Virus record (IMG/VR): IMGVR_UViG_3300017779_000007
Span: 1-56,378 of that record
Direction: 5' to 3' (one strand)
Source of the DNA: a virus
Taxonomy: Duplodnaviria > Caudoviricetes
DNA: 56,378 nt
How positions within the stretch are numbered: the first letter of the stretch is position 1; each line of letters starts with the position of its first letter. Made by a program: the position numbers and the translations under genes. Below are positions 16,601-51,429 of the stretch, piece by piece. The notes under the pieces were generated by a model, which had not been told where the DNA came from, did not search any database, and was given only the letters and a program-made list of their open reading frames with translations.

Positions 16601-19600
16601 TAAGACGCTTCGATTCAAGACGTTTTTCCTCTGTATCGTCCTGCATCTCGCGCAACGCTTCTCTCCTCTCCGCTTTCCTCTCAGCCATATATTCAGGAGA
16701 GAAAACTGGTGAACTGGATAACGTCGCGTTATTAGCGATTGCCCCAGCCAAAGCTCCGGCGTTGGTAGGCGGACCCTTGCGGGGATTGCTCCCCACGTCG
16801 ATAATATCTCCAAGAGACTCCGCTACTTCTTTAGCAGATCCTATCCCCACATTCGGGAACAACATAGCTATGTTGATAAGGAAGCTATCAAAGGGTGAGG
16901 AGTTGTTAGTTGGTTTTAGATTTTTGAAGTGCTTCTGAACGTCCTCCGACAACAAGAACTGAGCGGTGAACTCGTTAAGATCGACAAGAGCGTTCTCAAG
17001 AGATGGGACGGGTCCGCTGCTTTCTTTTTGCGATTCGTAGGTTTCTTTCGCGAAGTCGAAAACACTGGACAACTGGTTAACTATACCTTGTTTACTTGAG
17101 GGTGGATTTGAAATAGTTCCAGAAATGAATGCGTGGACATACTCCTCAAGTAATGTGTTGACGAGACCTCGACCGTTTCCAGACGTGACATTGATGAACA
17201 CACTGTCCGAGCCGTCTTTTCCCTTAACGTATTTTCCTGCGATGTCGGCTTTTGCTTCGCCCATCACAAACTTAATCTTCTTGATGAAGGCGGTGTCGCG
17301 CAGCAGCAAGGTAGCTACAAATTTATGGGAAGGGATCTTTGAATTTTTAGCGACTTCTTTAAGGGCTTCAATAACACTGTCGGGGTTCCCACTCTCAAGA
17401 CCCAGTCTCTCAATATCAGCCTTGTTCTCAGCCGTAATGACTGCCCTTTCGGCGGCAGAGATGTTAGATCTCGATAGGTGGGTTCGGACTGCTTTGGTTA
17501 AAGCAATCATTGTGTTCTTCGCCTCTTCCGCAGTGATCTCTGTTTCCGCGCCTGCATTGAACTGAGCTTGGAAATCGCTCACAGCGTCAGAGTTCTCGTA
17601 GCTAGCACCGTCTGAGGGGGTCACTAAGCGGACGAGTTGTAGCGCGTTCAGGAAATCTTCGCTGCCGATTAATACTTTGTCCTCCAGAATCTCCACAAGG
17701 CTATTAACAGACGGCCTAGTGTCGCCGTTTCCAGATGAAAGCCATGAAGCGAATATCCCGAACAGGTCTTTAGAACTCGCGTTCTCAACCATGTCTTCCA
17801 TCTCAGGATCTTCCAATACGTCTTCAAGAATAACCTTGACGATTCCCTTGCGTAAGTCTGGGCTAGTGTTTACGGTATTAACCGCTTTTTTCATCGCCCC
17901 AGATACTGTGTTACTTATATCTTGTGGGGAAGCGAAGTCGCCTACAGGGTTTTCACCGAAGTTAAAAACCCAACTACTTACTTTAGGGTTCTTGAATTGA
18001 TCGGGAGTTATATCGAACGGAAGGGTAGAGGCCGCTCTCTGTTGTCTAAGGGAGGTGGCTTTTTCTTGCTGATTCTTAAATTCGTTCGCGGCTTTTTTAA
18101 GTAGCGTATCGAAGGTCGGCGTTGTGTTATTAGCGAAGTCTGGGTTGTTCAAGAGTTTCTGCTCTACGAACAATCCGAGAATCGTTTCTCCCGTAAGCTC
18201 TTTGTTAGATTCTACTTTAATGAACGGGAGTAGTTTTTGAGCCGCTTGATCTACATTCTTAGATCCCGTCTGGGCTACCAGCTCATCGAAGGGAGTGGTA
18301 GGGTTGGTTCCTTCTCCGAACGCTTCTACTTTTGCGCGAAGACTAAACAACTGTGCGTTAAATAAGAATTCTTGTTTAGCTGACTCAAATGCCACCATGC
18401 GGAACTCCTCGTTAAGCTCCCCGTCGTTGGCTTCAAGGAGGGCTTGGGCGTTGCGATTCGTTTCGTCTCCGGTCTTCTCTAGCTCAAGGGCGAACCTATT
18501 GATTTTTCTTTTGATCGACGTAGTATTAGAAAAGTTTCCATCAGTAATTGGGCTTCCATTTTTGTCAAAGTCTGGAACACCTTCAGGTAAGGTCGCAGGC
18601 TTGAAACGGATACTAGCTATAGCAGAAGCTCTCGTATTGTTTGGCCCAATCGAACTTACGCCCCTCGCGTTAGTGACCTTAGACTCTAGGAGAGTGCCGT
18701 CGGCAGTAGGTCCGACCACGTCACTAACCATCTCATTTTTAATTCGGATAGCGGGGTTGAGGTTTGCTCTATTGAAACTACGAGGAACCTTAACGGTTTT
18801 ACCAGCCCTCAACATCTCAATAATAGAGATCGGGTCGTTGTCGAACACGCCATTACCTCTATCATCAACGAAGAATTTAACTGGCTGGGTAACGGTCTTA
18901 CCGGATACGGGATCGAAGTAAGTCCTGAAAGGTCTCTTCTCATTATCAGGGTCGAGCTTCGCGTTCTTTGGGGGAGCGAGTTTAGGGTAAGCTGTATAAA
19001 CAGCAGAAGACACAAACTCTGACGCGGACTGGCGAGACGAGTCAGGAGGCATAGGTAAACCGTAGTTTACGTTGGGGTCAGGATTAATCGGAAACCCATT
19101 ACCCATCGCGAAGCCAATAAGCCTGTTAGCTTTCTCCTCTGCGTCAGGCCCACTAAAGGGAGACTCTTCATACCTAAATGTATTGGGTGACGGCCTTGAA
19201 GAATACCTCTTGGATTTAGTTGGGTCGAATCCACGGACGCTGTTGTTAGCGGAACTTATGTTCGTTCTGGACTCGCCTTGAAGGGTGACGCCAGCAGATT
19301 CTGCGTTAGCCTGTTCTTGAGTAAAGTCGATATAAGGTCCGGTGTAGTCCTTAATTTCTCTAGGGGATTTACGACCGTAATCGAAAGGAGTCTCTAGAAC
19401 TGTGACGGGTTCACTATTTCTAACGGAGACGCTCTGCTGGTTTCTGATGTTCTCTAAAGCAATTTCAACGTCGAGTGGGCTAGAATCGTTCAGGGACTGC
19501 AAGAACACCACCGGATCTACCTTCTGGTCAGTAAGTGCGAAATCAGGAGTAGTAGGTGACTGCGCTGCAACTTCAAGGTTTTGTTCCTTTTGCGAAATGG

Positions 19601-22418
19601 CTGCGCTCTCCTGCTCAAGCTCTATTCTCCGTTGTTCGCGAAGGGCGACCTCGGCTTCCCGCTCCTCCTCCTTTTTAGGTAGGGTCGATTCGTCGCTAAG
19701 TTTAGATATCTCTTGGGCGATCTCCTTACTTCTTTTGGCGTTTTCTGTTCTTAGTAATGACTGCTCAGTAACAGTGGATGTTCCTTCTGAGGGGGTTGGT
19801 GCTAGTTCAGCCGCAGCCTCGGCTGCACCACGACTTTGGGCGCGGGTCGTAATTATCTGACGAACCTGTTGGGCGGTGAGTGGGCTACCAGTTCCTTCAA
19901 GTTCAGAAGAAACTTGTTCAGCGAACTCATTCGCCATCCGAATACGACTTTCTCGCTGATCCATCGGAGTATAACCTACGAATCTTGCACCGGCCTGAAT
20001 AGTGGGGACACCGCCACCGAGAATACCGCCAACTTGTGCGGCGTGCCACACCTGCGTCATCCTCTCAAGCATCGGCGTGTCCTGATTCAGTGCTACGTCT
20101 TCAACGAATGAATTAACTAACTGATCGAGACCTTCTTCCAAACTTTCATCGACTGCATTTTTTGCGATCTTCTTCCCAAGAGCAAAAGCCCCATACTTCT
20201 TGATGGAGGCATTCATCACGGTTTTCATTGCTCCCGCGACGAGCGTATCAGAGATTCCCGACGTGTTGCCCATCGCTTGGAAAACCGCTTTAGATTCTCT
20301 AAAGGTCATGCCTTTAAGCAAGGCGTCCTCAACACCTCCGCGACCTATCATACTGAAGCCTGCGGTAATTGCACCTGTGATCGCACCAGAGGTTAGGGCG
20401 AATCCTAACGCCCTATCGTGGGCTTCATCTTCGCTTAGTTCTGGGTCTTTGCGTAGCTGGTTATAGAGCGAGGCGTAAGTCATCGCGCCACTACGAGTAG
20501 CTGCTGGAACGAACCCCGCTACCCCTATATTAAACTTACTAGAAGCTACTTTGTTAAATGCTTCGATGGCTTCGACGGTCTTGGCGCGACCTCCTTTTTC
20601 TAACGACTCCCTGATCAAGACATTAGCCGCCTTGTCTGCCACTTCTTTATAACCCTGTTTCGTGCTGGCTCTAAGGACATTACTGGTAAGTGCTTTAGCG
20701 AATCCCTTGGCGGTGAGCTGCGCTCCACCTTTTACAGTAGATCTCAAAGCTAAGTAACCCGCACCAAGAGTGCCACCGGAAACTGTAGCTAAAGCAGTCG
20801 TAGCGGCTATATCCACGATAAGGGGCGCAACGCTTTCGGACACGTCTTGAAACAAGCCATACTGCTCACCGAAAATTTGGGCAACCTCGCGGCGGTCCGA
20901 TTGTCTCTGAGCAGTATTAGCGAGACCGTCTTTGGCCCAGTCTGCCCCCATAATAGCGGGAGCGGCATACACAAGAGTGGCGACAGAATCCCAGACAGAG
21001 TAAGCAATTCCCTTGGCACTGTCAGCGAACTCATTGAAGTTCTCGTCCTTAGCGACGAAATCGTCGAAGATGTCTAGGTCATCTCGTCCGGCCTGCCTGC
21101 CATCTATAAGGGCTTTCGCCCAGTCATCGCCGACGGCGGACTCAGACAAAAGCTTGCTGTAACTCGCGAAGTTTTGTTTGAGAACATCGACTCGTTTCTC
21201 GGCAAAAAGTTTTTTCTGCTGGGCAGTAAGTTCAGGATGCGCGGCAAGAGTGTTAATCATGTCCTCTTCACGGGCAAATACTGCGGGGTTCAGGACTGGA
21301 CCAAGAGCGGTCTTGTAAAGGTTCTTACCCGCTTCAGACGGATCTTGATGCAGCTTAAACGTCCCGCGTCTAGCCCCCTCATGGATAACATGGGCCTCGT
21401 AAGCGTCGCGGACGTCTTCGGCCTTATAATTAGCCCCAGAACTGTTCAGCTTATCGGTGATATACTCAACCGTATTGTCAAAGGATTGTCGGCTAGCGAT
21501 ATAAACTCTTTTTTTCTTGTCGTTACTCTCCTCTGATTCAACCCCAACGGCTGTCATCAGATCGCTCAGTCCTCGCGTTAGGGATTGCGTCGTTGCATCC
21601 CAAGCATTCTGACTTTCTCTGGCGAGTTGAAGGGTATGTCCGGTGACGTGTTCCGCAACTGAGGAGTCCTGTTGGGCCAACTCAGCGATGCTTTCAGAGA
21701 TCTCTGCGATCTGCTTGAATTTGTAAAGTTTGATGTCGAGACCAGCGACAGGAGAAAGAAGTGCTTGAGCAGCCAGACCGTCTTTAAACGACACACCTCC
21801 GATCTTGGAGGCTTTGATCGCCTGATTTACGGTCATGTTCTCGGCGGCGTCACCGACTAATAGTTCGCGCTCGCCAGTTTCATTAGTGACGTAAGCCAAC
21901 GGAATCTGGTTACTCTCAACCAGATTTCTCTTAACCTCGTCAAATCGGCGATTAACAACTTCTTCAGACTTTAGTTTAAGACCAGCTATTTTATCTTGGT
22001 AAGGCTGGACAGTTCCACCAGCGGCGACGACTTTCTCGCCTGCCTTATACTCGGTGAGGGTCATCCAGTCTTCGTCGTCACTGTTCAGTCCGGCGCGAAC
22101 ATACTCAAACTTTTCCTCAAACGATGGCTCCTTGGTGGCCGTAAGAGCTTGAATAGCTTCTTCGTCTACCACACCGAGGTCAGCTAATTTAGAATTCAGT
22201 GATCCACTAATCTCTCCTTCGACACTAGGGGTGTAAGCCCCCTGTTCAAGGTAGCCCTCACGGACGTAATCCGAATACTGGACGTAGCTCTGAGGGTCAG
22301 CTTCGGTTAATTGATTCTCCTCTGACCAAACAGAAAAGGGTTTAAGTTCGGGTGGTTTAGGAGCCTCTGTGATCAGAGACTTATCAAAGTCGGTAAGGGA
22401 TGGATTCAAATCAGTCAT
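10653..22418 (-). CDS. Giant (3921 aa) polyvalent / internal virion ejection protein
   Basis: Gly/Ala-rich hydrophobic N-terminal region typical of ejected proteins, two zincin-like EExxH motifs, ART-PolyVal-like module at about 15105-15800. Confidence 0.75.
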   Translation of the reverse strand: MTDLNPSLTDFDKSLITEAPKPPELKPFSVWSEENQLTEADPQSYVQYSDYVREGYLEQGAYTPSVEGEISGSLNSKLADLGVVDEEAIQALTATKEPSFEEKFEYVRAGLNSDDEDWMTLTEYKAGEKVVAAGGTVQPYQDKIAGLKLKSEEVVNRRFDEVKRNLVESNQIPLAYVTNETGERELLVGDAAENMTVNQAIKASKIGGVSFKDGLAAQALLSPVAGLDIKLYKFKQIAEISESIAELAQQDSSVAEHVTGHTLQLARESQNAWDATTQSLTRGLSDLMTAVGVESEESNDKKKRVYIASRQSFDNTVEYITDKLNSSGANYKAEDVRDAYEAHVIHEGARRGTFKLHQDPSEAGKNLYKTALGPVLNPAVFAREEDMINTLAAHPELTAQQKKLFAEKRVDVLKQNFASYSKLLSESAVGDDWAKALIDGRQAGRDDLDIFDDFVAKDENFNEFADSAKGIAYSVWDSVATLVYAAPAIMGADWAKDGLANTAQRQSDRREVAQIFGEQYGLFQDVSESVAPLIVDIAATTALATVSGGTLGAGYLALRSTVKGGAQLTAKGFAKALTSNVLRASTKQGYKEVADKAANVLIRESLEKGGRAKTVEAIEAFNKVASSKFNIGVAGFVPAATRSGAMTYASLYNQLRKDPELSEDEAHDRALGFALTSGAITGAITAGFSMIGRGGVEDALLKGMTFRESKAVFQAMGNTSGISDTLVAGAMKTVMNASIKKYGAFALGKKIAKNAVDESLEEGLDQLVNSFVEDVALNQDTPMLERMTQVWHAAQVGGILGGGVPTIQAGARFVGYTPMDQRESRIRMANEFAEQVSSELEGTGSPLTAQQVRQIITTRAQSRGAAEAAAELAPTPSEGTSTVTEQSLLRTENAKRSKEIAQEISKLSDESTLPKKEEEREAEVALREQRRIELEQESAAISQKEQNLEVAAQSPTTPDFALTDQKVDPVVFLQSLNDSSPLDVEIALENIRNQQSVSVRNSEPVTVLETPFDYGRKSPREIKDYTGPYIDFTQEQANAESAGVTLQGESRTNISSANNSVRGFDPTKSKRYSSRPSPNTFRYEESPFSGPDAEEKANRLIGFAMGNGFPINPDPNVNYGLPMPPDSSRQSASEFVSSAVYTAYPKLAPPKNAKLDPDNEKRPFRTYFDPVSGKTVTQPVKFFVDDRGNGVFDNDPISIIEMLRAGKTVKVPRSFNRANLNPAIRIKNEMVSDVVGPTADGTLLESKVTNARGVSSIGPNNTRASAIASIRFKPATLPEGVPDFDKNGSPITDGNFSNTTSIKRKINRFALELEKTGDETNRNAQALLEANDGELNEEFRMVAFESAKQEFLFNAQLFSLRAKVEAFGEGTNPTTPFDELVAQTGSKNVDQAAQKLLPFIKVESNKELTGETILGLFVEQKLLNNPDFANNTTPTFDTLLKKAANEFKNQQEKATSLRQQRAASTLPFDITPDQFKNPKVSSWVFNFGENPVGDFASPQDISNTVSGAMKKAVNTVNTSPDLRKGIVKVILEDVLEDPEMEDMVENASSKDLFGIFASWLSSGNGDTRPSVNSLVEILEDKVLIGSEDFLNALQLVRLVTPSDGASYENSDAVSDFQAQFNAGAETEITAEEAKNTMIALTKAVRTHLSRSNISAAERAVITAENKADIERLGLESGNPDSVIEALKEVAKNSKIPSHKFVATLLLRDTAFIKKIKFVMGEAKADIAGKYVKGKDGSDSVFINVTSGNGRGLVNTLLEEYVHAFISGTISNPPSSKQGIVNQLSSVFDFAKETYESQKESSGPVPSLENALVDLNEFTAQFLLSEDVQKHFKNLKPTNNSSPFDSFLINIAMLFPNVGIGSAKEVAESLGDIIDVGSNPRKGPPTNAGALAGAIANNATLSSSPVFSPEYMAERKAERREALREMQDDTEEKRLESKRLKDEVEREKFLSLIPEEDRSKALPLLNYLRGLIPFGMELEFVTESDGSSSFVQSDSSAVYINLPLMLSQTGGVGDIAGRAIAGVIINEELVHSASWSSMTDGEVQNYINSLSDSDFVDIAKEYHVGNEPRLAAAIVSLQSSDPQVVAKAKYGLAQEKLRMHFQKVTRGFTTEDDNQFWKSKPSLLKILGRYFRGIINRWVAKREQIGPAADVALNKLIIEMRAIEAGFVRQPTKMAFDTKNPTEVFQMFEVVNQDFVGLASAPVEDVEYLELAKDPEKNWLELRTMVERRAKAAGYETRTKHATGATFDAFDRGEIPEFDPDTNIRGFHVSNEADTFSSYRYQRTDNKVLDLFVKKGRTIDRVTAQQMVARGEETDGFPSGFDTVVFSEPAGFPTQKQQRDFDQGEPVSLDGQNERSGYFVIKKDSALGGAELYLENNPNETITTYEDLEEAFSFHDTEHLVVRSPDQLKSADPITRDANGNVIPLSQRFDESKSSILYSAPVAGATTPAEIPPEIASASDPIVKHIYVKEDGKFYEKIKNGYIKIQQSLDQFEGMAVMLHQPDGAMAGTLEVEGDKVVDGKGGVYYPVMFGDQGYFWASTKDAAVNMAENLNKISKRNNGTILMALTSAPIEKMFSSTTMATGAVNLFATLAKNPKKYGITEAVVNRAIVNASKERLVLKKKDKDTGVETTTIKEFSRKLKLKDGLAKNIEEMKKNLLPEESVFPQRGSFVAQIASAIADSMKLPTAEVQKKFNPKEKAAFDKKKNQALNIANLLAGDKNLYNKSLIPTGNLKMASVMQGMADLFAEPLVKTFQQFQQMDKKASGRVYAVLSMKGEVEAVETDFHDSYPYSIRSTSGETPVVHVLSESNLWKDVVYSAKKPNPKKAADPYDGNTDPIKKSEEDSIFPPSVGVSQRELIFRKADEGVETVKLPLYSAPTAAAAAPSSKPTGSTINFAAVVDLLEIPVYELETGKPQNFIMEFLNKVFAGELPEAFRRLIQNRDAYKRLTEANVVAYKQEMDKLIEENYGGYEYAPMDLIALAQGHYTGNIVTEEVLKDIDKDYEAAHADAEKKRKVGLITEEEADSLKGLAHNARTEATDKAYEEAITSREADRDAALRELAKESPKLAAHIIDIRQRLIIPLQKKLVKSGLDDNIGVKISETGGVYITRSYKMFTDSSYLQKVREDPNYQVVRDEAMRFFNKQFKDKKFEELVEGGMDKSRAEVEARILLEKENQSYPHKSYAQEVLNTFLMRYDEGGRDSTTASPKHYKMIEDNLKRRKDLPVEIRNLLGEIGSEAGTDLILRTYSTVATLASQQAFLNQLVAFGKETGVMVTVEEKLATKENRVKYANFVAARSGAPSKNDPLSGMQVDPEFKKLLDTTLNDSFSMDYADTAEKAVKGAVGLAANLSGKAMAAKTLGSIGFYLRNGIGNLLFGTSQGFLRYDKMIAEMAKGTFGVLNPFNEGEIDPELNELIGLNIKGDELRAGVMRDLLNGRITPDGIRKQIEDLGEKTKLNKATKALAIIEKKAQDLSAALDAAYKVAYYNHELAILKEAQAADTSTVEDGKVRVNNLANMSDTQIKRLAARKVVMTSQAYSQAPPAVAAYTKSGLGLLFAPFIRFKMEVPRIVINTYKLASEEIASGNPVLVRRGKTRMIWMTGTIGVLSSALPMILAALSGIGDEEDEAMRASIPDYLRGHTFFYYRWNGELKSVDLTYVNPYSLLVDPFLRAYENIRSGEFTEAGAALALGLVRDQYLDDQILAGAVSEARRNLNPSTGKPIWNKGADGPVEAGSKILGYIAKEAYAPRLGKDFVEGWSTGSLKGMTLEIMDGAMPARVHDVDLQKQYSRYLLDLNKRYNNVKSGLNAVKRNVPMSDGDVADIIDENIEDRRLLNYELMRINKGFASLGLTNTDLLKGMKDKKLGRDRVALLSKGYMDKPSFKYIIEGLLDPRTDEYGRARAQQVYDHASKLNRYIPVRPITESE

Positions 22419-24766: not shown

Positions 24767-25321
24767 CTAGGTTAAGGTTTTAGCTACGGGCTTCGATTTT
24801 TTCTTTTGAAGGTCGGATTTTACATCCGACAACAGGCCAGCCTTTGAAGTTTTCGACGGTACGCCGCCCACTCCGGTAAAAGCGTTGGAGACAGTGCCAA
24901 ATTTGTAGTTAGGGTCAAATACGTTTAGCGTGGGAGAGCTAGCGTCCGAACTCGACGTATTTGAGGGGGGAGAGCTAGCGTCCGAACTCGACGTATTTGA
25001 GAAGGTGTCCCCCATACCAGTTCTTGCGATTTTCGACGCCCCGCCCCCAACAGGAGAAGACTCGAAAAGACTTTTCGAGTAACTACCAATTTCGTAGTTT
25101 GGGTCTTGCATGGCTTCTAACCTACCGAGACCCGTAGTCTGGTTCATTACATTTTGCGTTGCTTCTGCTGCATTTGTAGGGGCTGCTGGAGCTGCTGCTG
25201 GAGCTGCTGCTGGAGCTGCTGCTGGAGCTGCTGCTGGAGCTGCTGCTGCCGTAGAAGCGGCGTTCTTCTTCGCCTGATTTGACTCCTGTGCTTCTTTTAG
25301 AATTTTTTTTCTATCGGCCAT
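24767..25321 (-). CDS. Low-complexity protein (184 aa), putative internal virion protein
   Basis: (AAAP)n tract from a 12-bp repeat at about 25182-25247; NTSSSDASSP duplicated (36-bp period, 24932-25001). Confidence 0.55.
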   Translation of the reverse strand: MADRKKILKEAQESNQAKKNAASTAAAAPAAAPAAAPAAAPAAAPAAPTNAAEATQNVMNQTTGLGRLEAMQDPNYEIGSYSKSLFESSPVGGGASKIARTGMGDTFSNTSSSDASSPPSNTSSSDASSPTLNVFDPNYKFGTVSNAFTGVGGVPSKTSKAGLLSDVKSDLQKKKSKPVAKTLT

Positions 25322-25669: not shown

Positions 25670-25748
25670 AAAAAAACTTTTTTCCCAGACCTTTAGTACC
25701 TTATAATATATTATAAGGTACTAAGAGCCTCAGAGAAAAGTTTTTTTT
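25670..25748. repeat. 80-bp palindromic element, copy 3 (inverted relative to copies 1 and 2)
   Basis: Reverse complement reads AAAAAAAACTTTTCTCTGAGGCTCTTAGTACCTTATAATATATTATAAGGTACTAAAGGTCTGGGAAAAAAGTTTTTTT. Confidence 0.95.
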
Positions 25749-27538
25749 TAGCTGATCAGGCTGGTATCTGGATTATTGAGCGCACCGCTAAGACTTTTAA
25801 TCGTAACCTGTTTCCTGAACCCCTTACCGTCATCGTCTTTCGGTGGGTCAACAGCCACTAATCCTAATCGCTGGCGAGCGCAATCGAGAGCCAAGAACGC
25901 AGCATCTGCCAAGTCTGGGCTGCGACCAAACCGTGCCTTGAACTCTGGTTTCGACTCGATCTTCACTCTCAGCGTGCCTGTTCCCTTAGTCATGTCGTAG
26001 TTTCTGGCACACATTTCCTGTGCGAGATCCGACGATACACCGTAGATCTGCTTAGTTCTCAGCAGTTCCTTGCCGACGAACCAGAGTTCAGAGACTCTAT
26101 TAGTGTAGAGTTCGGCTCCGGTAAGCTGGCTGTTCATGCTGACACGCTTGTCTGATCCTTTACCACCGAAGGTGACGCGCATAAAGTCGCTCGACCACTC
26201 GCCAGCCAACACGTCGCAGAACGGCGCACCCGCTCCGGTCGAGTCGAGTGCTACGTTATTAGCAGAGATATTCCTCCGTTTGCAGTGGTCGATAATCTGG
26301 TGGACGATCTGGTAGGTGCGCGGAACCGCTTTATTAGTGGCGTCATCGTTTAAGTGGATCGCCTCTCCCAATTTACATACGTATTGGCCGTTTCGGGCGT
26401 AGCCTACTTCGGCGGTATACATAATAGTCCGGTCGCCCCCGTTCGTGAAGGCAGGGTCTATTCCGGCCACCGCCGTCGGTTTTCCGGCCCAATCGACCTC
26501 CCCCATCGCACCACCTTTAGTAAGCTCCGCCTCAGAGTAGATTCCCGTTGTTTCGTCAGAGTCGAAAAAGACTGCGCGAACCATCCTCATATATCCTCTG
26601 GACTCTGGCCCTAATAACGCCCTGTCTTCCGCCAGCTTCTCAGCGGTGGGTAGCCAAGGATATTTAACCTCTCCTAAAGTAATGTTTGGACTCCGCTCAC
26701 CATCCAGTCTAATATATTTACCGTTCCATTTAGTCTTCCATTCGTCAGCGGTCTGCGTATCCACGGACTCCCAGCCCTTCTTCGGCTCCGACCAGACGCC
26801 GAAAGCGTCAAACCTACTATTCGGGTTGGACATACCAATCATTTGAAATGACGGGTTCTTAGATAAGTTAGTCAGGCCAGCCTGCAAGATGCTCTCAGAA
26901 AGTTCTGAAAGCTCGTCGCCGATCATAATCACGCGCTTCTGCTTGATTCCGATGAATTTGCCAATCGCCTCTCTCGTCTTAGATTTTTCCGCTGCAATAA
27001 GCGATAAACCAGCTCTCTCGATAAGCGTGCCGTTTTCATCGATGTAGGCAGCGTTTCCTATTGAGTCCCGTATCTTGATCGGCGCACCATCGATCACGGA
27101 CAATAGAGACATTACTGAACCCCATATCCTTTTTCGCGCTTCCCGTAGCGTTGTTGAGGTCATCAGGACTAGTGTGTCGCGTGGCTGAGATAGCCACTGG
27201 ACGATTCCCCATGCGGCCATTGTGTGTGATTTACCGGACGACGCAGAACCACCGACCGCCAGATACTTGTGCTTAATCGCTGCCCGAATCATTTTTTCGG
27301 CCCAAGGATGGCGAACCATCATATGCTCCGGTAGTTCTTCCCTATTCCAGAGTTCGTCGCAGACTCGCCAGAAGTAAAACTCCTTGGCCTTGTCGTTCGG
27401 GTGGTGCGCGAAACCGTAAAGTAAAGCGGTAAGGAGACTGGTGGGCTGGATCATTAGACCGCCCACGTCCATCTTCTTGGATTGCGGGTCGATGCGCGGC
27501 TCCAGAACGCGCTTGCGTTTGTCTGCTTCGGAAGGCAT
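25748..27538 (-). CDS. terL: Terminase large subunit (about 596 aa from ATG 27538)
   Basis: Walker A GSASSGKS, Walker B IMIGDE, SNPN, nuclease motifs GIDPA..GGDRT and SPDLADA. Confidence 0.9.
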   Translation of the reverse strand: MPSEADKRKRVLEPRIDPQSKKMDVGGLMIQPTSLLTALLYGFAHHPNDKAKEFYFWRVCDELWNREELPEHMMVRHPWAEKMIRAAIKHKYLAVGGSASSGKSHTMAAWGIVQWLSQPRDTLVLMTSTTLREARKRIWGSVMSLLSVIDGAPIKIRDSIGNAAYIDENGTLIERAGLSLIAAEKSKTREAIGKFIGIKQKRVIMIGDELSELSESILQAGLTNLSKNPSFQMIGMSNPNSRFDAFGVWSEPKKGWESVDTQTADEWKTKWNGKYIRLDGERSPNITLGEVKYPWLPTAEKLAEDRALLGPESRGYMRMVRAVFFDSDETTGIYSEAELTKGGAMGEVDWAGKPTAVAGIDPAFTNGGDRTIMYTAEVGYARNGQYVCKLGEAIHLNDDATNKAVPRTYQIVHQIIDHCKRRNISANNVALDSTGAGAPFCDVLAGEWSSDFMRVTFGGKGSDKRVSMNSQLTGAELYTNRVSELWFVGKELLRTKQIYGVSSDLAQEMCARNYDMTKGTGTLRVKIESKPEFKARFGRSPDLADAAFLALDCARQRLGLVAVDPPKDDDGKGFRKQVTIKSLSGALNNPDTSLIS

Positions 27539-27541
27539 AAT
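27513..27541 (+). promoter_or_regulatory. Promoter for HTH/TerS-like gene, embedded in terL start
   Basis: TTGCGT-17 bp-CATAAT-7 nt-ATG(27549). Confidence 0.5.
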
Positions 27542-27548
27542 TAAGTGG

Positions 27549-28190
27549 ATGTCTGAAAAACCTATACGAGAGTGCGAGGCCGAAGCCTTGCGCCTTAGCA
27601 AAGAAGGTTACAGTAATAGTGCGATTGGTCAACACATTGGGGTTCACCGCAACACAATTCGTAAATGGCTAAAGAAGCACGGAGTCGCTGCAAAGGTGAA
27701 CGGGGATATGTCGGACGGCAAGGTTCTCGACAACCTGATCCACAATAAAAAAGTCAAAGACGAACACCTGAAACCGGACGACGACAAAGACCAGCTTAAA
27801 GAAGATATTGAAGAACACTTTAACGAGACGGTGAGTTCGGCCATTGTTGAAGAACGGTTCCGAGCGTCGAAAGAAGAGGACGTTACCCTTAGCGAGATCG
27901 CGGAGGCGCAGAACTCGCCCGCTGACAAATACCAGCACTATGTAGCCGCAGCCGGAATTAAGTTACTGCGCGACTCGATAAAGACCCTACGCGGTCCGAA
28001 GACAATCCGCGAGATGTCTGAACTCGACCAGCTCATTCGACGTAACTTAGGTCTTAACGCGAAGACTGGCGGAGGCAGTAGTAAGATGCAGATCGATATT
28101 TCTATCCTTAACAACTCCAAAGCCGACAAAGGAGGAGGGGCGATAAAACAGAAAAAAACGATTGACGCCGAGACCGGAAAAGAGATTTAA
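27549..28190 (+). CDS. HTH protein, putative terminase small subunit (213 aa)
   Basis: N-terminal HTH (GYSNSAIGQHIGVHRNTIRKWL), helical middle, adjacent to terL. Confidence 0.55.
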   Translation: MSEKPIRECEAEALRLSKEGYSNSAIGQHIGVHRNTIRKWLKKHGVAAKVNGDMSDGKVLDNLIHNKKVKDEHLKPDDDKDQLKEDIEEHFNETVSSAIVEERFRASKEEDVTLSEIAEAQNSPADKYQHYVAAAGIKLLRDSIKTLRGPKTIREMSELDQLIRRNLGLNAKTGGGSSKMQIDISILNNSKADKGGGAIKQKKTIDAETGKEI

Positions 28191-28431: not shown

Positions 28432-28604
28432 TGAAAAAACAATTAGATTGGCAGAACCTAGATATTATTCGTCTTTTCTTACTCCACCGTGAGGCAGACT
28501 TTGGGGAACACATAGAAGAATACGGGTTCAGCCCCTCAGAAGCGGATGATTACCGAGAAGAAATTATGAAGCTCCTGTGGGATAAAATGGAAGAAGTATT
28601 ATGA
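28431..28604 (+). CDS. Hypothetical protein (57 aa)
   Basis: MKKQLDWQNLDIIRLFLLHREADF...; coupled on both sides. Confidence 0.6.
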   Translation: MKKQLDWQNLDIIRLFLLHREADFGEHIEEYGFSPSEADDYREEIMKLLWDKMEEVL

Positions 28605-28999
28605 AACCCGAAACCCTATTCCGTCTCCACGAAGAGACGTGCGCTAAAACGCTCGACATCATGCGAGCAAAAAACTCCGACTACTGCGGTGGCACTGAGA
28701 CCGTAGACGCGCTCGCTAATTTCAAGTCAGCTAAATCGTTAGGACTCCATCCGGTTACCGGATTGCTGTTAAGGATGCAGGATAAACTGATGCGGATTAA
28801 ATCGTTCGTGAATGATGGCGAGCTAAAAGTCGCTGGCGAGTCGGTCGATGACGCCTGTGAGGATCTTGTGAATTACTCTATCTTAGCCAAAGCCTTACTC
28901 ACTGAGGAACGCGAGGAACACTGCGAGACGTGCGACGGGACTGTGGACGAGAACTGCGACAATATGTATTGTCCTGAGTATATCCCTACCCAGTTGTAA
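28601..28999 (+). CDS. Nucleotide-modification-associated domain protein (DUF1599/Nmad1-like)
   Basis: KNSDY, ANF, R..DKL.R, ESV.D...DL.NY motifs; C-terminal CxxC..CxxxxC. Confidence 0.7.
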   Translation: MKPETLFRLHEETCAKTLDIMRAKNSDYCGGTETVDALANFKSAKSLGLHPVTGLLLRMQDKLMRIKSFVNDGELKVAGESVDDACEDLVNYSILAKALLTEEREEHCETCDGTVDENCDNMYCPEYIPTQL

Positions 29000-29012
29000 C
29001 TCCACCAATACA

Positions 29013-29660
29013 GTGAAGGTAGCCGTCGCTCAGTTATACACACCCAATTACGACTCTTGGGCTTCAACCGTTATTGATAATACTAAAAATTATTGCGACA
29101 CTCACTCGTATCAATTTTTCCATAAAAAGATCCCGTTCCCGAAAGATAGGCATCCCGCATGGTATAGAATTCCTTTTATCCTCGATTTATTTGAGGAAGA
29201 AGATGTAGATTGGGTATTTTGGTCTGATATCGACTCCTTGATTATGAACCACTCTATTCGCATAGAGAATTTTCTTAAAGACGATAAGGATTTGGTAATA
29301 GCTAGTCAAGGAGAAGGCGGGTATTGTGAGAATTGGTGCGAACACGTTTTAAATACGGGTCAGTTTTTCATTAAAAATACCGAATGGTCGAGAGAACTTC
29401 TTAAACTGTGGTGGGAATGGCCTGAAAACAACCCAAAATATTTGTGGGATGTGTGGTGGGATAACGACGCGATGAATGTTTTCTGGAAGGATAACATTCT
29501 TGATTTTGATTCCAAAGTAGAAGTTGAGTATTCTACAAGGAAGTTCAATAGTTTTTACAGCGACTATATTGAAGGAGATTTTATATGCCACTTCACGGGA
29601 AATTTATCTTCGGAAGTAAGGGAGGATCTAATCAGTGAATATATCCAAAAATTGAAGTGA
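29013..29660 (+). CDS. Glycosyltransferase, GT34 (GMA12/MNN10)-like
   Basis: YC..H.Y, PAWYRI, DWVFWSDID (DxD), LNTG.F.IKNT.WS, GDFICHF.G. Confidence 0.8.
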   Translation: MKVAVAQLYTPNYDSWASTVIDNTKNYCDTHSYQFFHKKIPFPKDRHPAWYRIPFILDLFEEEDVDWVFWSDIDSLIMNHSIRIENFLKDDKDLVIASQGEGGYCENWCEHVLNTGQFFIKNTEWSRELLKLWWEWPENNPKYLWDVWWDNDAMNVFWKDNILDFDSKVEVEYSTRKFNSFYSDYIEGDFICHFTGNLSSEVREDLISEYIQKLK

Positions 29661-40216: not shown

Positions 40217-40428
40217 TTCTTGGATCTGTTCCTTGATTTGCTGAGTAGTTGTAAGTTCCCGCGTGAGTTGTTTCTAGGATTACCGTCTTTGTGGTCAACG
40301 TCCTTGCCCTTGACCCGCTTGCCTAAGATCTTCTTCATTTTACGGCGTGCGCCATTACGGCTAGCCCGATTCTTTTTCTGCTCCGGCTTGCTGTGGTAGT
40401 TGTCGTATTCTTTTTGGTAGTTCCTCAT
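40213..40428 (-). CDS. Small HNH endonuclease
   Basis: DVDHKDGNPRNN...NL......NR. Confidence 0.8.
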   Translation of the reverse strand: MRNYQKEYDNYHSKPEQKKNRASRNGARRKMKKILGKRVKGKDVDHKDGNPRNNSRGNLQLLSKSRNRSKK

Positions 40429-41078
40429 GGGTTGTTAAAGTAACTGACAATCGCCTGTGCGTATACGTCGGCCAGTAGTGAGTGCTTTACGTCAAAGAGA
40501 ACCCATTCCTTTGGGCAGCTACCGAAGAAAGGCTCGCAGATAACGGCTGGCGGCGGCACGCTCCTCAAGAACCCGCCCCCGCGACCGCCCGATTCAATCG
40601 CCTTAATCCCTCTGTCCGACTGCACCTTAAAGGTCTCGGCGTGGGCTTCGCGGAAACACTCAGCCAGACGGCGACCGTTGTTGCTGGTGTGGTAATGCAG
40701 ATATTCGTAGCCCTCTGCTTTCGAGCTTGAGTAGCTGTTGAAGTGTAGTTCGATTGCGATGTCGCACTCCTCCTTCGCGACGCTTTCGCCCAACCAGTCC
40801 ATCGCGCCGCTGTAGCTCTCCGACGGGTAGTCATCGAACACAACAGATTGAATCCCTTGATGGCGCAGGTGGCTCTTCAGCAGGTCTGCGACCTTCTTGT
40901 TGTAGGTCCACTCGTCCACGCCTCCGACGGACGTGGCCCCTTTGTCTCCGATCCGGCTGTGTCCCACACAGATGGCGACCTTCTTGAGATTCTTAACCTT
41001 CTTACGCTTTACGGCTTTAGCCGCTCTGTAAGCGGCTACAAGTTCTAAGATCTTGTCGAGTATCTGGCTTGGACTCAT
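40425..41078 (-). CDS. Endolysin, N-acetylmuramoyl-L-alanine amidase (Amidase_3)
   Basis: VAICVGH, E...N, IELHFN, ICEPFF. Confidence 0.9.
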   Translation of the reverse strand: MSPSQILDKILELVAAYRAAKAVKRKKVKNLKKVAICVGHSRIGDKGATSVGGVDEWTYNKKVADLLKSHLRHQGIQSVVFDDYPSESYSGAMDWLGESVAKEECDIAIELHFNSYSSSKAEGYEYLHYHTSNNGRRLAECFREAHAETFKVQSDRGIKAIESGGRGGGFLRSVPPPAVICEPFFGSCPKEWVLFDVKHSLLADVYAQAIVSYFNNP

Positions 41079-46465: not shown

Positions 46466-46494
46466 AATATAGTCGGGTTAGGCCGTCAAGTCAA
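46466..46494 (-). promoter_or_regulatory. Sigma70-type promoter, likely leaderless
   Basis: TTGACT-17 bp-TATATT-6 nt-ATG(46459). Confidence 0.65.
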
Positions 46495-47262
46495 TCACTG
46501 AGAAATAGGGGGTAATCCTAAGCCACGGCGTAGACAGGCTCCGAGACGGGTGTCACTAGCAAGAAGATCGTCCGGCCCGTCGAAGCGGTCAATGAGTCCT
46601 GCCAGCGCATGGCGCGATGCTATAACACCCCAAGAGTTGTAGCTGGCCACTTCTTCGTCAGTTCCGCCCTGCTCCCACAAACCAATCTCCATGCAATTGA
46701 TTGGAGTAACCAAGTGCGTAGGTAGCTCGATCCACTGCCCCCAGCTATTGTTATCAAGGGACTTCCGAACCGCATCAGTAGCCGCCTCCAACCACCCAAT
46801 TGCGCCATCCTTTTGTTCAAGCACGTCCAGTGCGAAGTCCGCTGAGTCACGGATAACCTTAGAACCAGCTCTACCAGCAAAGAAGTTATCCATCCAACCC
46901 CCACTCCACTCTTTGTATCCGACGAAATCGAATCCGCGAGCCATCTCGGTAAGCCAAGAAAGATCGGACCAACAAATATAATCCATGTCCACCCAAGCCC
47001 CTCCTACAGTCACGATAAATTTCTTACGTATCCAATCCACTCGGTGTGTGCAGTAAGCTTTTTCGAGGACTTTCGGAAGTGGACCCAATGAATCTTCCAC
47101 ATCCTGCCTCCCTATCAGGACGGCGTTGGGGTTGTGGTATTTGACAGTCTTCCAGCACAGGTCATAGAACCAATGCCGATTTTTGCCCTCCCAGTAACAG
47201 TAGAGTTTATAACTATCGTCGTTTACTCTCTCTTTATCCACACTACCAAAACTTAGTCTCAT
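46495..47262 (-). CDS. Glycosyltransferase, GT32/capsular-polysaccharide-synthesis-like
   Basis: YWEG, HRVDWIR, GGAWVDMD (DxD), N.F.A. Confidence 0.8.
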   Translation of the reverse strand: MRLSFGSVDKERVNDDSYKLYCYWEGKNRHWFYDLCWKTVKYHNPNAVLIGRQDVEDSLGPLPKVLEKAYCTHRVDWIRKKFIVTVGGAWVDMDYICWSDLSWLTEMARGFDFVGYKEWSGGWMDNFFAGRAGSKVIRDSADFALDVLEQKDGAIGWLEAATDAVRKSLDNNSWGQWIELPTHLVTPINCMEIGLWEQGGTDEEVASYNSWGVIASRHALAGLIDRFDGPDDLLASDTRLGACLRRGLGLPPISQ

Positions 47263-47914
47263 TCACCTTACCACTAATATTGGACGAGCCTTCTCGCTGG
47301 CCTGCGATCCACTCTTTCGGGCAATAAACGCGCCAGTCTTTGCGTCGGTGGGCCACTTCTAGCTGGTGGTCGATGTGCTTGTTCGTATCTCGATAGTCTG
47401 TCGCGTAGGAGATGTGGCGGTATAGCTTCTCAAACGTAGGCTGGTTTACAGCGTAGGCGTGGGTTCGGTTGACAGAGCCGCCGATAATAACATTAGGAGA
47501 TCTTGTCTTTGAATTATCTCTCCGGTGCTGGCCACCTAAATATATCTGGCCCCAGTCGTCCGGCACGTCTTCCATGAACTCATTGAGTTTCTTTAACGCG
47601 TCTTCCTTGAAGATCACGTCGTCCTCCAATACCAATACGTTATTTAAGGTCAACGTATGCTGATTATCTCTAGTGTGTAGAACGTCTTCAAGGATTCGCT
47701 GATGTGAACGCAGGCAACCCCACGCTCCGTTTCCAGAATTCCAATCGGCGGGATGGGTTGTCCAGTCACCAATAATGGCTGGATAATAATGAACCCAGTC
47801 ATTATTAGCCATTCCGGTTTCTTCCAAATGCTTCTTCGTCTCTTCAAGACGATCCGGTCTGTGAGCGCAGTTTATCACGTAAACGCGGTCAAACCAGTCG
47901 GTTAGATTTTTCAT
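47243..47914 (-). CDS. Glycosyltransferase family 25-like
   Basis: VYVIN...RPDR, G..GC..SH, LVLEDD, W..IYLG, THAY, ID. Confidence 0.85.
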   Translation of the reverse strand: MKNLTDWFDRVYVINCAHRPDRLEETKKHLEETGMANNDWVHYYPAIIGDWTTHPADWNSGNGAWGCLRSHQRILEDVLHTRDNQHTLTLNNVLVLEDDVIFKEDALKKLNEFMEDVPDDWGQIYLGGQHRRDNSKTRSPNVIIGGSVNRTHAYAVNQPTFEKLYRHISYATDYRDTNKHIDHQLEVAHRRKDWRVYCPKEWIAGQREGSSNISGKVNETKFW

Positions 47915-48291
47915 GATTGTGAGTCTGATTCTGATACTGATGAGCTACTCTTAGCGGAACCACTAGAGCTAGAGCCACTAGAGCTAGAGCCGCTGTAGCT
48001 ACAAGACGAACCACTAGCGGTTACTGTGATGGTAAGTGCGCTAGATGAAGAACCAGAAGAAGTATCTACGTAATCTCCTGACGGATCATCTGCGTCCGTC
48101 CCCCCTACGTATTCGTCTCCAAAGGCATCCGTGTAGATCCAAGCAACTCCGTTCCATTGAATAGTCTGCTCTCCTCCTCCTCCTGTAGTGTAGAGACCCC
48201 TGCTTTCGTCCCAATCTAAATCGAAAGGTCCAGCTACCGAGCTACCGCCTGCATCGTAGTGGGTGGCTTGTGCATCACAAGGTAACGACAT
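47911..48291 (-). CDS. Ser/Gly-rich small protein (126 aa)
   Basis: C-terminus SGSSCSYSGSSSSGSSSSGSAKSSSSVSESDSQS; coupled to neighbours. Confidence 0.7.
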   Translation of the reverse strand: MSLPCDAQATHYDAGGSSVAGPFDLDWDESRGLYTTGGGGEQTIQWNGVAWIYTDAFGDEYVGGTDADDPSGDYVDTSSGSSSSALTITVTASGSSCSYSGSSSSGSSSSGSAKSSSSVSESDSQS

Positions 48292-49403
48292 TACTTTCTA
48301 GGATAGGCTGAGTTAATAAACTTCTCGTTAGCGATGAATTGCTCTCTGCTACGCTCAGGCATATCGAGATGCTTGAATCCTTTACGTACTCCGGTCAGCT
48401 TCAAAGTAACCTTAGTCGGCCTCAAGAAAGATAAAGGCCAAGCTGAGAGGATCACGTTGTTCTCCTCGACCACCGCGCCAACTGATCCGGCCCTGTCACC
48501 AGCTACGCCTGTTATGACCATTGAATCTGGCTCGCATACAGCTAAAAATCGATCATCGATTCGGGTTACGGTTTTGGGGCCGACCACCGGAACATCTCTC
48601 ATAACGAACTCAAAGAGAACCTCGTTGGACTCCATCGTGAACAGCGCACCGTATCCTTCGTCATGCCAGTCCATCGGCACGATAGCTGTTGATTTATCGG
48701 AACCGGAATCAGAGGTAGAGGTAGAGGTAGAGGTAGAGGTAGAATCAGAGCCGGAGCTACTGTCAGAACCTTCGCTGCCAGACGCTTCCTCTGGCTCCGC
48801 GAAAGCGGTTATCCAGTAAACGTCGGTAGATATGTTCTGGTCTAGTGACGGGATGTCGTAACCCGCGTCTCCCTCCGCGACGTTCCCGATTTTTACGTAG
48901 AACTTACCGCCGTCGTCATTAGGTAGGCTTTGTTGGTCCGGTGCATCTGGCCCCTTCAATTCACACGAAGTAACAGAACCGGCTGAGTCGGTTTCCCAGT
49001 AAAGATAGACATCGCCACGCCAATTTAGCCTATAGAATTTATAACGGTTCTCCCCACTCTCACCCTCTTCAGGTTTGAGTTGGTCGGGGGTAATTACTTG
49101 CGGATTAGTTATACCTGTTTGAGATACCAAACCGTCCGGCCCAATTACCATCTTGTTAATCTGATGAACCAGAACGCCGTAACAGATGTGTATCCCCTCC
49201 GCATTTTCCGCTTCTCCCTCACCGACGGGGCAGGGTCTCAGGGCAAAGGGATACGGTTTGTAGTCTGGAAGTTCCCTAGAAGTCTCCACAATAGATGACT
49301 CACCTCCTGTATCGAAAGAAATGTCGTAGTTTGGGTTATCCTGCGGCGCGTTGTTTAGCGGGATCGGCAAGTTGATATTCCCTCTTTCAAACGGTTCACT
49401 CAT
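48291..49403 (-). CDS. Putative virion protein with Ser/Thr-rich linker (370 aa)
   Basis: SGSEGSDSSSGSDSTSTSTSTSTSDSGS, encoded partly by (AGAGGT)5 at 48711-48740. Confidence 0.65.
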   Translation of the reverse strand: MSEPFERGNINLPIPLNNAPQDNPNYDISFDTGGESSIVETSRELPDYKPYPFALRPCPVGEGEAENAEGIHICYGVLVHQINKMVIGPDGLVSQTGITNPQVITPDQLKPEEGESGENRYKFYRLNWRGDVYLYWETDSAGSVTSCELKGPDAPDQQSLPNDDGGKFYVKIGNVAEGDAGYDIPSLDQNISTDVYWITAFAEPEEASGSEGSDSSSGSDSTSTSTSTSTSDSGSDKSTAIVPMDWHDEGYGALFTMESNEVLFEFVMRDVPVVGPKTVTRIDDRFLAVCEPDSMVITGVAGDRAGSVGAVVEENNVILSAWPLSFLRPTKVTLKLTGVRKGFKHLDMPERSREQFIANEKFINSAYPRK

Positions 49404-50667: not shown

Positions 50668-51429
50668 TTAGGAGGTCGCAACTTTGATGACGGCGAAATT
50701 CACTTTGACGGGGGAGACGGGTGTTACATTGCTAGTTCCGCCGTTTCTTATAGAGATATCGCAAGTTCCTGTTGTTGTGTTAGTAACTGAAACTGACAAC
50801 GAGTCGTCTCCGTCTTGTAAAGACACAACCACAACATCGTTCGCTCCTATAGCAGTGTTGGTCAAAGTGAAATTAATCGACGGATTGGCCGGAGTGGAGC
50901 CGACGAAGGGTGAAAGATACGTATGAGAAGAGAGGAGGGTGATCACTCCAGAGGGGGCATTCAAGGTGACTCCTGTAGTAATACTTCCGGCGGGGTCTTG
51001 AGTCGCCGTGCCGCCAGATGAGTATCCTAGATCTGCGCTGGCTAGGATGTCGGGTGCGGTAACATCTCCATTTGTCACAGAGACATTACCAGTTCCAACG
51101 GAAACATCGCCTACTGACGTGGTAATATCACCACTTCCCGTAGAGATACTGCCAGATCCCGTAGATATACTGCCTGATGACACGGTAATATTTCCAGATG
51201 TTACGGAGATGTTACCATTGGAAGTAATATTACCTGTCGCTGAAACCGTGTTTGCCGTTAGACTGTTCATGGACAGGTCAACCGTGCCAGTAACACTCGT
51301 TGAGCTAGTAATCGCGTTAGGTCCGGCTGGTCCGGTCGGTCCGGCTGGTCCAGCTAACATGGTAAGAGAATAACTGGAATCAGTTACAGTCAGACTGTGC
51401 CGAAGCGATTCTGTGATTTGTACGTCCAT
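50668..51429 (-). CDS. Fibre protein (short collagen motif, 7-residue G-x-I repeats)
   Basis: GPAGPTGPAGP; GNIT/GSIS/GDVS repeats; TGVTLN..SG.IT C-terminal domain. Confidence 0.7.
   Translation of the reverse strand: MDVQITESLRHSLTVTDSSYSLTMLAGPAGPTGPAGPNAITSSTSVTGTVDLSMNSLTANTVSATGNITSNGNISVTSGNITVSSGSISTGSGSISTGSGDITTSVGDVSVGTGNVSVTNGDVTAPDILASADLGYSSGGTATQDPAGSITTGVTLNAPSGVITLLSSHTYLSPFVGSTPANPSINFTLTNTAIGANDVVVVSLQDGDDSLSVSVTNTTTGTCDISIRNGGTSNVTPVSPVKVNFAVIKVATS

Follow-up and report, generated by a model that had tools for sequence, protein, structure and literature searches.

A fibre-like gene block with a GT25-family glycosyltransferase as a candidate protein O-glycosylation module in an uncultured phage

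Two genes for Ser-rich proteins are followed directly by two glycosyltransferase-like genes at positions 46,495 to 49,403 of the virus record IMGVR_UViG_3300017779_000007 (Caudoviricetes), which raises the question of what these transferases modify. The window analysed here is this whole stretch of DNA, a complete virus record of 56,378 bases with direct terminal repeats. A first-pass annotation had read the locus as a substrate-plus-enzyme cassette for virion O-glycosylation, in which a GT25-like and a GT32-like enzyme would modify Ser-rich structural proteins and a GT34-like gene elsewhere in the genome might extend the glycan. The explanation favoured here, held with moderate confidence from comparisons of genes and motifs, is that the locus encodes a cytoplasmic protein O-glycosylation module for virion appendages that would act on the Ser tracts. 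Gene order, motifs and co-occurrence in relatives agree with the cassette as first described; the role given to the GT34-like gene and a strict coupling do not. The four genes of the block, from upstream to downstream, are as follows (lengths in amino acids, aa).

48291..49403, minus strand: open reading frame (ORF) for a fibre-like protein of 370 aa
47911..48291, minus strand: ORF for a Ser-rich protein of 126 aa, termed ORF2
47243..47914, minus strand: ORF for a GT25-family glycosyltransferase of 223 aa (Pfam PF01755)
46495..47262, minus strand: ORF for a GT32-like protein of 255 aa (ESM Atlas neighbours and a local DxD match)

The gene junctions were found as the first-pass annotation had described them. 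The 370-aa and 126-aa genes meet in TAATG, the 126-aa and 223-aa genes in ATGA, and the 223-aa and 255-aa genes overlap by 20 nt, which indicates that the four genes are translationally coupled. Upstream, a 415-aa gene joins the 370-aa gene through TAGATG, and downstream the block is followed by a 321-aa gene. The setting had been called a tail operon, which is plausible as a label; no capsid, portal or tail-tube genes were identified in the window, and the 370-, 126-, 321- and 415-aa proteins gave only chance-level rows in Pfam, PHROG and NCBIfam. An identification of the 415-aa protein by fold was tried and given up (mean predicted local distance difference test score, pLDDT, of the model 76.8, no match above Z 5.2); the model has a faint likeness to tail-tip or baseplate hub barrels at Z 4.4-4.9.

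Both of the Ser-rich regions that had been claimed are present, namely the linker SGSEGSDSSSGSDSTSTSTSTSDSGSD in the 370-aa protein and the Ser-rich tail of the 126-aa protein. A density of at least 10 Ser in 20 residues is reached by three of the 58 non-nested ORFs of at least 80 aa in the window, two of which are these proteins. Their tracts are written in mixed codons with all six Ser codons in use, which points to maintenance of the tracts at the protein level and speaks against a simple DNA repeat. The six proteins encoded from the 415-aa gene through the 321-aa gene were found to be without a hydrophobic segment or signal-like N-terminus (maximum 19-residue hydropathy 1.33; 0.41 on the Kyte-Doolittle scale for the 223-aa protein). 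Because enzymes and candidate acceptors alike have no signal peptide or membrane segment, a modification would be cytoplasmic and would be performed by soluble, nucleotide-sugar-dependent enzymes before assembly, and glycosylation of the cytoplasmic Leloir type fits.

The 370-aa protein can be divided into the following parts, all on the minus strand.

about aa 48-204: N-domain, moderately conserved
aa 205-233: linker, hypervariable in Ser/Thr/Asp/Gly and very variable in length
aa 234-244 (48672..48704): motif 1, GSDKSTAIVPM, at the end of the Ser linker; first strand of the knob
aa 237-343 and a terminal helix: knob, a C-terminal beta-sandwich in the model

In an alignment of 32 homologues the residues G234 to M244 are invariant and the C-terminal part is nearly so. 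The structure model of the protein has a mean pLDDT of 62, with 73-86 in the blocks of the knob, and residues 237-343 are modelled as a beta-sandwich. The best structural match of the knob was the R1 pyocin fibre 6cxb (Z 8.0, root-mean-square deviation 4.4, 103 residues aligned), followed at Z 6.4-6.8 by the R2 pyocin fibre, the receptor-binding domain of the cyanophage Pam1 tailspike and AP22 gp53. Foldseek gave local probabilities of 0.99-1.00 with E values of about 0.006-0.012, the structure matches of the model in BFVD carry the names tail, minor tail, tail-fibre, baseplate and collagen-like, and in the structure rows of the ESM Atlas the knob aligns to the C-termini of tail-spike and collagen clusters with a template modelling score of 0.70. 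A weak match to a ClfA model falls on the linker. Since a Z score of 8 is borderline, the protein is referred to as fibre-like and not as a proven tail fibre. Profile searches found no Pfam family for the knob, and the C-terminal domain, for which the invariant motif at its start had suggested an autoproteolytic chaperone, had no match to Peptidase_S74, the endosialidase-type intramolecular chaperone, in Pfam at E 0.1 or better.

The association of the knob with Ser-rich linkers extends far beyond the window. A HMMER scan over 1.84 billion representatives (clustered at 50% identity) returned at least 393 representatives of the knob family at E 0.001 or better, 232 of them at E 1e-10 or better. 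The knob stands at the extreme C-terminus in 144 of the best 150, in host proteins of 121 to 1,584 aa. For the 141 of these 150 that have at least 30 residues upstream of the knob, at least 8 Ser were counted in the 36 residues that lead up to the knob in 131 cases (median 15), compared to 4.3% of 680 random N-terminal windows of the same proteins (median 2). All 105 homologues that match both anchor patterns, out of 120 close homologues listed, have an S/D/G/T linker of 17 to 48 residues; the remaining 15 missed the N-side anchor pattern only.

The second candidate acceptor, ORF2, consists of little beyond its tract: Ser makes up 26% of the protein and 14 of 20 residues at the densest point. 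The tract is flanked by a tag related to motif 1.

47926..47961, minus strand: motif 2, GSAKSSSSVSES, the C-terminal tag of ORF2 flanking its Ser tract

Alignment of ORF2 with its relatives showed a small N-domain with the two invariant residues C5 and C97, the tag S-G-S-x-K-S-x-S-S-V-S-E and tracts that are up to 36 residues longer in relatives. Across lineages the tag follows the pattern G-S-[AS]-K-S-x-x-S-[VI]-S-E. In the marine clade to which the window belongs it is C-terminal and comes after the poly-Ser tract, in distant clades it is N-terminal (for example MSYGSAKSSGSVSES...) and the tract follows. The shared element GS[DA]KS[ST] thus adjoins a Ser tract, on either side, in both candidate acceptors. 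In a six-frame translation of the window GS[ADSE]KS occurs three times, in the 370-aa protein, in the 126-aa protein and in one non-coding frame. In three relatives ORF2 is 439-551 aa long (L019:1991-3469, L017:8029-9684, L020:8017-9336; relatives' loci are numbered with L), with a large folded middle between Ser tracts and the C-terminal tag kept, which suggests that tag and tract travel with different cargo domains.

The GT25-like identity of the 223-aa protein was supported, since the Pfam profile Glyco_transf_25 (PF01755) was passed with 32.6 bits against a cut-off of 24. Positional homologues score 27-51 bits in most loci and fall below the cut-off in a few (L024 21.2, L039 21.5), and 595 homologues were found at E 1e-5 or better. 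The residues E97-D98-D99 are invariant in 13 relatives down to 41% identity, as is HxDHQL, and the EDD has its counterpart in an aligned EDD of procollagen galactosyltransferase 1. Among solved sequences, this human enzyme (E 2.6e-9) and mimivirus R655 (E 4.7e-8) come closest to the GT25 profile, in matches that cover profile positions 8-160 only; this proximity may reflect the crystallised set more than function.

The first-pass annotation had proposed that Ser-rich tracts and glycosyltransferases should co-occur across related genomes, and the pairing does recur widely. Viral contigs were scanned with two knob peptides, which yielded 40 loci. The linker and motif 1 were present in 37 of the 40 host ORFs, including those with only 39-52% knob identity and an unrelated N-terminal part (228 to 1,277 aa). 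Loci sharing exact 60-mers were collapsed, which resulted in 24 knob lineages, the whole marine clade of the window counting as one. Motif 1 was found under a strict pattern in 19 of these lineages, the ORF2 tag in 11 under a strict and in 18 under a loose pattern, and in 20 the next ORF downstream of the knob gene is Ser-tract rich, with up to 51% Ser. Seventeen lineages have at least 2.5 kb of downstream flank; 12 of them contain a GT25 homologue within 4 kb, and four of the other five have matches to other glycan-type families:

L046: Glyco_transf_7C, pyruvyl-transferase and O-FucT-like, above the Pfam cut-offs
L049: sulfotransferase, Caps_synth/GT32 and radical SAM, above the Pfam cut-offs
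L037: sulfotransferase just above the cut-off and a methyltransferase
L041: weak Stealth match only, below the cut-off

The order of knob protein, Ser-rich ORF, GT25 and variable glycan genes recurs at only 40-50% knob identity on contigs of about 56 to 200 kb. The same question was asked from the side of the enzyme. Two GT25 peptides retrieved 64 loci, which gave 29 dereplicated lineages with at least 3 kb of upstream sequence. In 20 of the 29 an ORF with a Ser tract ends no more than 3 kb upstream of GT25, and six of these 20 have no knob, which extends the link between GT25 and Ser tracts beyond the knob family. When one locus was taken to represent each lineage, Ser-tract ORFs made up 29 of the 90 ORFs of at least 100 aa that end in the 3 kb before GT25, versus 0 of 184 in the rest of these loci (Fisher p 2.7e-16), a statistic that ignores shared ancestry and in which 10 of the 29 loci were also knob-retrieved.

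Both of these limits weigh against reading the tracts as glycan acceptors, and so do several further observations. The remaining nine of the 29 GT25 lineages have no Ser tract upstream of the enzyme. Five of the nine form a syntenic sister clade with the gene order 451-aa gene ... 415-aa, 351-420-aa, GT25, 321-aa and 81-aa genes, in which the gene at the position of the 370-aa gene has neither knob nor poly-Ser and in which there is no ORF2 and no extra transferase. Some members of this clade keep the N-domain in this gene (hidden Markov model match in L082, L083 and L085), and the last 170 residues of its product are rich in S/T/P/G/N in L082 and L086 (24% Ser+Thr), with only 10% in L081. It follows that GT25 has a conserved tail-side role independent of long poly-Ser, and the Ser tracts may serve to add acceptor sites and not to define them. 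Ser tracts are also missing near two distant GT25-like genes of huge phages, in the two loci that were examined. The fold match of the knob is borderline, Z 8.0 being a common level and the pLDDT of the whole model 62. One knob lineage, L116, the last of the five without GT25, has no glycan gene in the flank examined. On this contig of 61,197 bases from a Luteolibacter metagenome-assembled genome (MAG), genes for a tyrosine-integrase-like protein and a large serine recombinase come after the knob protein and a Ser-rich ORF, and no transferase was found in between. Among the exceptions to the pairing of Ser tract and glycosyltransferase, this temperate relative is the clearest.

The lineages without tracts, with the syntenic sister clade among them, speak for a different explanation, in which the Ser tracts are unmodified, flexible and protease-tolerant linkers or spacers and GT25 and the cassette enzymes act elsewhere, on another site of a structural protein or on a glycan that is carried non-covalently, their location being simply the variable end of a late transcription unit. 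Poly-Ser linkers for which no glycosylation is known are common in marine bacterial enzymes, and the available text of PMC2386152 presents those of carbohydrases simply as separators between domains, which points in the same direction and counts against glycosylated tracts. This explanation leaves unaccounted for why Ser-tract ORFs are found only beside GT25 in the count given above, why small ORFs with 40-51% Ser carry a conserved tag, and why the pairing persists at such low knob identity. It is considered unlikely, though it deserves more weight than the two other alternatives discussed below.

The 255-aa gene was named GT32-like on first inspection. This identity was borne out in part. The Pfam profile Gly_transf_sug (PF04488) reached 13.8 bits against a cut-off of 23, and no sequence match was found in the Protein Data Bank. 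Support came from the ESM Atlas, where 23 of the 30 feature neighbours form one set and, in the top three clusters (score 0.98) of this set, 82-95% of the members carry PF04488 and 65-93% carry PF05704, and from a local BLASTP match (E 0.001) of VDMDYIC to ADMDFIC in a relative's GT32 that passes Pfam with 61.7 bits. The label GT32-like is therefore a fair one for a putative member of the family.

The gene is part of a variable cassette. A homologue is present in one of eight close relatives (L001). In two independent seawater runs GT25 and its flanks were covered with zero depth over the GT32-like gene, and one seawater contig joins position 46509 to 47230, from which it was concluded that natural relatives lack or replace the GT32-like cassette. 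Among the phages compared, the content between GT25 and the next gene is nothing, GT8 (25.1-27.5 bits, cut-off 24.3), GT32 (Gly_transf_sug, 61.7-65.5 bits), a second GT25, GT2, UDP-galactopyranose mutase (uridine diphosphate-galactopyranose mutase; PF03275, 170.9 bits, L011:10546-11538, equal to L004:11546-12538), methyltransferases, sulfotransferases or a hexapeptide transferase. Genes of the sulfotransferase family lie downstream of the knob gene in the distant relatives L037, L039, L042, L049 and L100, and in L042:7598-8926 a sulfotransferase domain is fused to GT25, which hints at sulfated glycans. The mutase suggests that some of these phages could make furanose-containing glycans. By their predicted families the cassette genes are typical glycan builders and decorators, and the cassettes differ between natural populations.

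On its downstream side the cassette is bounded by a conserved element.

46466..46505, minus strand: conserved element TTTCTCAGTGATTGACTT with a -10-like box, right cassette boundary before the 321-aa gene

The block had been said to end right at the next promoter, and indeed a promoter-like TTGACT-17-TATATT, matching the consensus at 10 of 12 positions, starts one base after the stop codon. The region has 5 promoter-like sites, with 5.6 expected from shuffles, and so shows no enrichment of such sites. The 18 bases of TTTCTCAGTGATTGACTT are unique in the window and identical in 14 of 14 marine-clade loci examined (L010-L027, L115), whatever gene precedes them, and in the window the last codons of the GT32-like gene overlap with their first bases. 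The element is a candidate for the late promoter of the 321-aa gene or for a cassette recombination boundary. A cassette just before a conserved boundary element also sits at a natural insertion point, which again suits enzymes that have no connection to the Ser tracts.

A further alternative is that the transferases remodel the host envelope (lipopolysaccharide (LPS) core, O-antigen or capsule) late in infection, with less sticking to debris by progeny or a block of superinfection as a possible result. GT25 enzymes of bacterial lipooligosaccharide synthesis and serotype conversion by temperate phages are parallels for such a role, and phage transferases that change the host serotype are known according to the available text of PMC12619734. 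Pfam and the automatic source names place the family under LPS biosynthesis, and Glf, sulfo- and methyltransferases would also suit work on polysaccharides. The position of the genes, translationally coupled to fibre-like genes on the late strand, does not suit this role, and the role gives no reason for conserved Ser tracts and tags beside the enzyme. Family scans of 52 window ORFs turned up no integrase families, so that lysogenic conversion is unlikely here. Taken together, remodelling of the host envelope was judged improbable.

For the O-glycosylation module favoured here the following course is proposed. Candidate acceptors would be the fibre-like protein, with a hypervariable Ser-rich linker between its domains and GSDKSTAIVP at the linker's end, and the small ORF2 protein with its related tag GSAKSxxSVSE. 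The soluble GT25-family enzyme would start a glycan on the serines of both tracts and may dock at the shared GS[DA]KS[ST] tag. Extension and decoration of the glycan would fall to the genes that lie between GT25 and the conserved promoter element; in the window this would be the GT32-like enzyme, and in relatives GT8, GT32, GT2, UDP-galactopyranose mutase and methyl-, sulfo- and pyruvyl-transferases, exchanged as cassettes. Mucin-like, strain-variable sugar coats on tail appendages would be the outcome. We infer in this that the tracts are the acceptors, that GT25 is the enzyme which starts the glycan and that both proteins belong to the virion. In a more far-reaching and tentative form of the proposal, which was given less than even weight, Ser tract and GS[DA]KS[ST] together would act as a portable, sequon-like 'glyco-tag' for the docking of a dedicated GT25-family protein O-glycosyltransferase, used in hundreds of phage lineages on fibres whose architecture is otherwise unrelated, and cassette exchange would diversify the coat to include sulfated and furanose-containing glycans.

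The genome around the block bears on a last alternative, in which the transferases glycosylate modified bases of the phage DNA and thereby evade restriction. The plus strand of the window carries genes for a family A DNA polymerase, a helicase, an exonuclease and a primase-like protein; the terminase large subunit, a 3,921-aa ORF, the four-gene block and an amidase endolysin are encoded on the minus strand. The features concerned are:

10653..22418, minus strand: ORF of 3,921 aa, without PHROG match; an ART-PolyVal row is sub-threshold (17.1 bits, threshold 31.2)
24767..25321, minus strand: third Ser-tract ORF of the genome, 184 aa, with an (AAAP)n run and a TSSSDASSP repeat
25748..27601, minus strand: terminase large subunit
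28601..28999, plus strand: DUF1599 'nucleotide modification associated domain 1' protein (25.0 bits, exactly the cut-off)
29013..29660, plus strand: GT34-like gene (PF05637, 61.9 bits)
40425..41078, minus strand: amidase endolysin

DNA glycosylation is a common role of phage glycosyltransferases (PMC12619734 in the text available, citing Pyle et al. 2024), and the PHROG match of the 223-aa protein is named 'glucosyltransferase' and belongs to the 'moron/auxiliary' class. The genes of the block are located among late fibre-type genes outside the replication module, and no hydroxymethylase or thymidylate-synthase-like family was matched among the 52 ORFs scanned. A better candidate for such a function is available elsewhere in the window, in the GT34-like gene beside DUF1599 (28601..29660). 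DNA glycosylation by the enzymes of the block was therefore regarded as highly improbable.

The GT34-like gene, for which a role as glycan extender had been considered, is real, and it lies directly after the DUF1599 gene inside the replication module, away from the fibre genes. A connection with the fibre block is improbable, nucleotides or DNA are at least as likely a target, and the two genes may form a DNA or nucleotide modification pair. The 184-aa Ser-tract ORF is located just downstream of the terminase gene, 22 kb from the transferases, and lacks the GS[DA]KS tag; its product may be another acceptor or just a protein of low complexity. A 253-aa protein (50668..51429, minus strand; phrog_18251) contains a short collagen-like GPAGPTGPAGP stretch followed by Ser/Thr/Gly/Val-rich repeats, and its length varies from 253 to 444 aa among relatives.

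Searches of 50,697 phage records gave no match to the block (blastn, 4 kb) or to the 415-aa protein or the knob (tblastn), and for the GT25 protein the sole matches were four huge uncultured phages (25-29% identity); no cultured relative was found. Among 185,579 prokaryotes, searched with one genome per species, three MAG contigs were the only matches, all labelled Verrucomicrobiota (Verrucomicrobiales, Opitutae, Luteolibacter). This is a hint only, given that phage contigs can be misbinned, at a host among the Verrucomicrobiota and hence at the diderm host that the first-pass annotation had presumed.

If tract glycosylation is confirmed as proposed, sugar-coating of appendages would be widespread in uncultured marine, freshwater and soil phages, probable Verrucomicrobiota phages included; glycosylated phage particles have so far been documented mainly for mycobacteriophages. 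The signature of the module, i.e. knob, Ser tract and tag, then GT25, can be searched for in any virome. Cassette swapping at strain level suggests that the glycan is under diversifying selection, and the glycan could affect adsorption, stickiness to marine polysaccharide gels and evasion of recognition by hosts or grazers.

No published description of the module was found in the literature on phage poly-Ser linkers or on Ser-rich fibres with transferases, so that the comparison has to be made with systems known from other organisms and phages. In mycobacteriophages, according to the available text of PMC12619734 (citing Freeman et al. 2023) and PMC11256854, phage-encoded glycosyltransferases glycosylate the virions, and the capsid and tail-tube subunits bear their glycans at the C-terminus (PMC12619734, citing Freeman et al. 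2023). As in that system, the transferases described here adjoin and are coupled to structural, here fibre-like, genes on the late strand. Unlike in the mycobacteriophages with their mycolate-walled host, as far as the cited texts describe them, the candidate acceptors are a linker between domains of a fibre-like protein and a small Ser-tract protein with a gene of its own; further differences are the GS[DA]KS[ST] tag on both acceptors, the GT25-family anchor, the swappable extender cassette and the host, for which there is the hint at Verrucomicrobiota. In the same texts the mycobacteriophage system was demonstrated on glycosylated particles, whereas the present module is known from the genes of an uncultured phage.

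Long Ser-Asp repeats of the staphylococcal serine-aspartate repeat (SDR) proteins are O-glycosylated by SdgA and SdgB, which in the accessible text of PMC3794999 and PMC8561734 are dedicated soluble transferases acting on Ser-rich stretches, as is proposed for the enzymes here. Similar to the SdgA/SdgB targets, the relatives L004 and L011 carry pure Ser-Asp repeats (SDSDSDSDSDSDSDS). The acceptors of SdgA and SdgB are bacterial cell-wall adhesins, whereas the candidate acceptors of the module are phage proteins. SdgA and SdgB also differ from GT25 in transferase family and fold, and to our knowledge no conserved tag stands beside the tract in their system.

By profile search, procollagen galactosyltransferase 1 (COLGALT1) and mimivirus R655 belong to the same family as the 223-aa protein; the former modifies a structural protein and the latter is virus-encoded. 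COLGALT1 acts on the hydroxylysine of collagen. Unlike for this enzyme, the acceptors proposed here are serines. A hydroxylysine acceptor, which came into consideration as both tags hold an invariant Lys, was set aside because no hydroxylase family was matched in the window scan.

With the marine bacterial carbohydrases the proteins of the block share poly-Ser stretches that separate folded domains, and they differ from them in that a conserved tag adjoins the tracts and a glycosyltransferase gene comes after them, no carbohydrase linker being reported beside a dedicated transferase in the text of PMC2386152 that was available. The module thus resembles the mycobacteriophage and SdgA/SdgB systems and is a member of neither, from which it is set apart by its enzyme family, its acceptor architecture, its tag and its exchangeable cassette.

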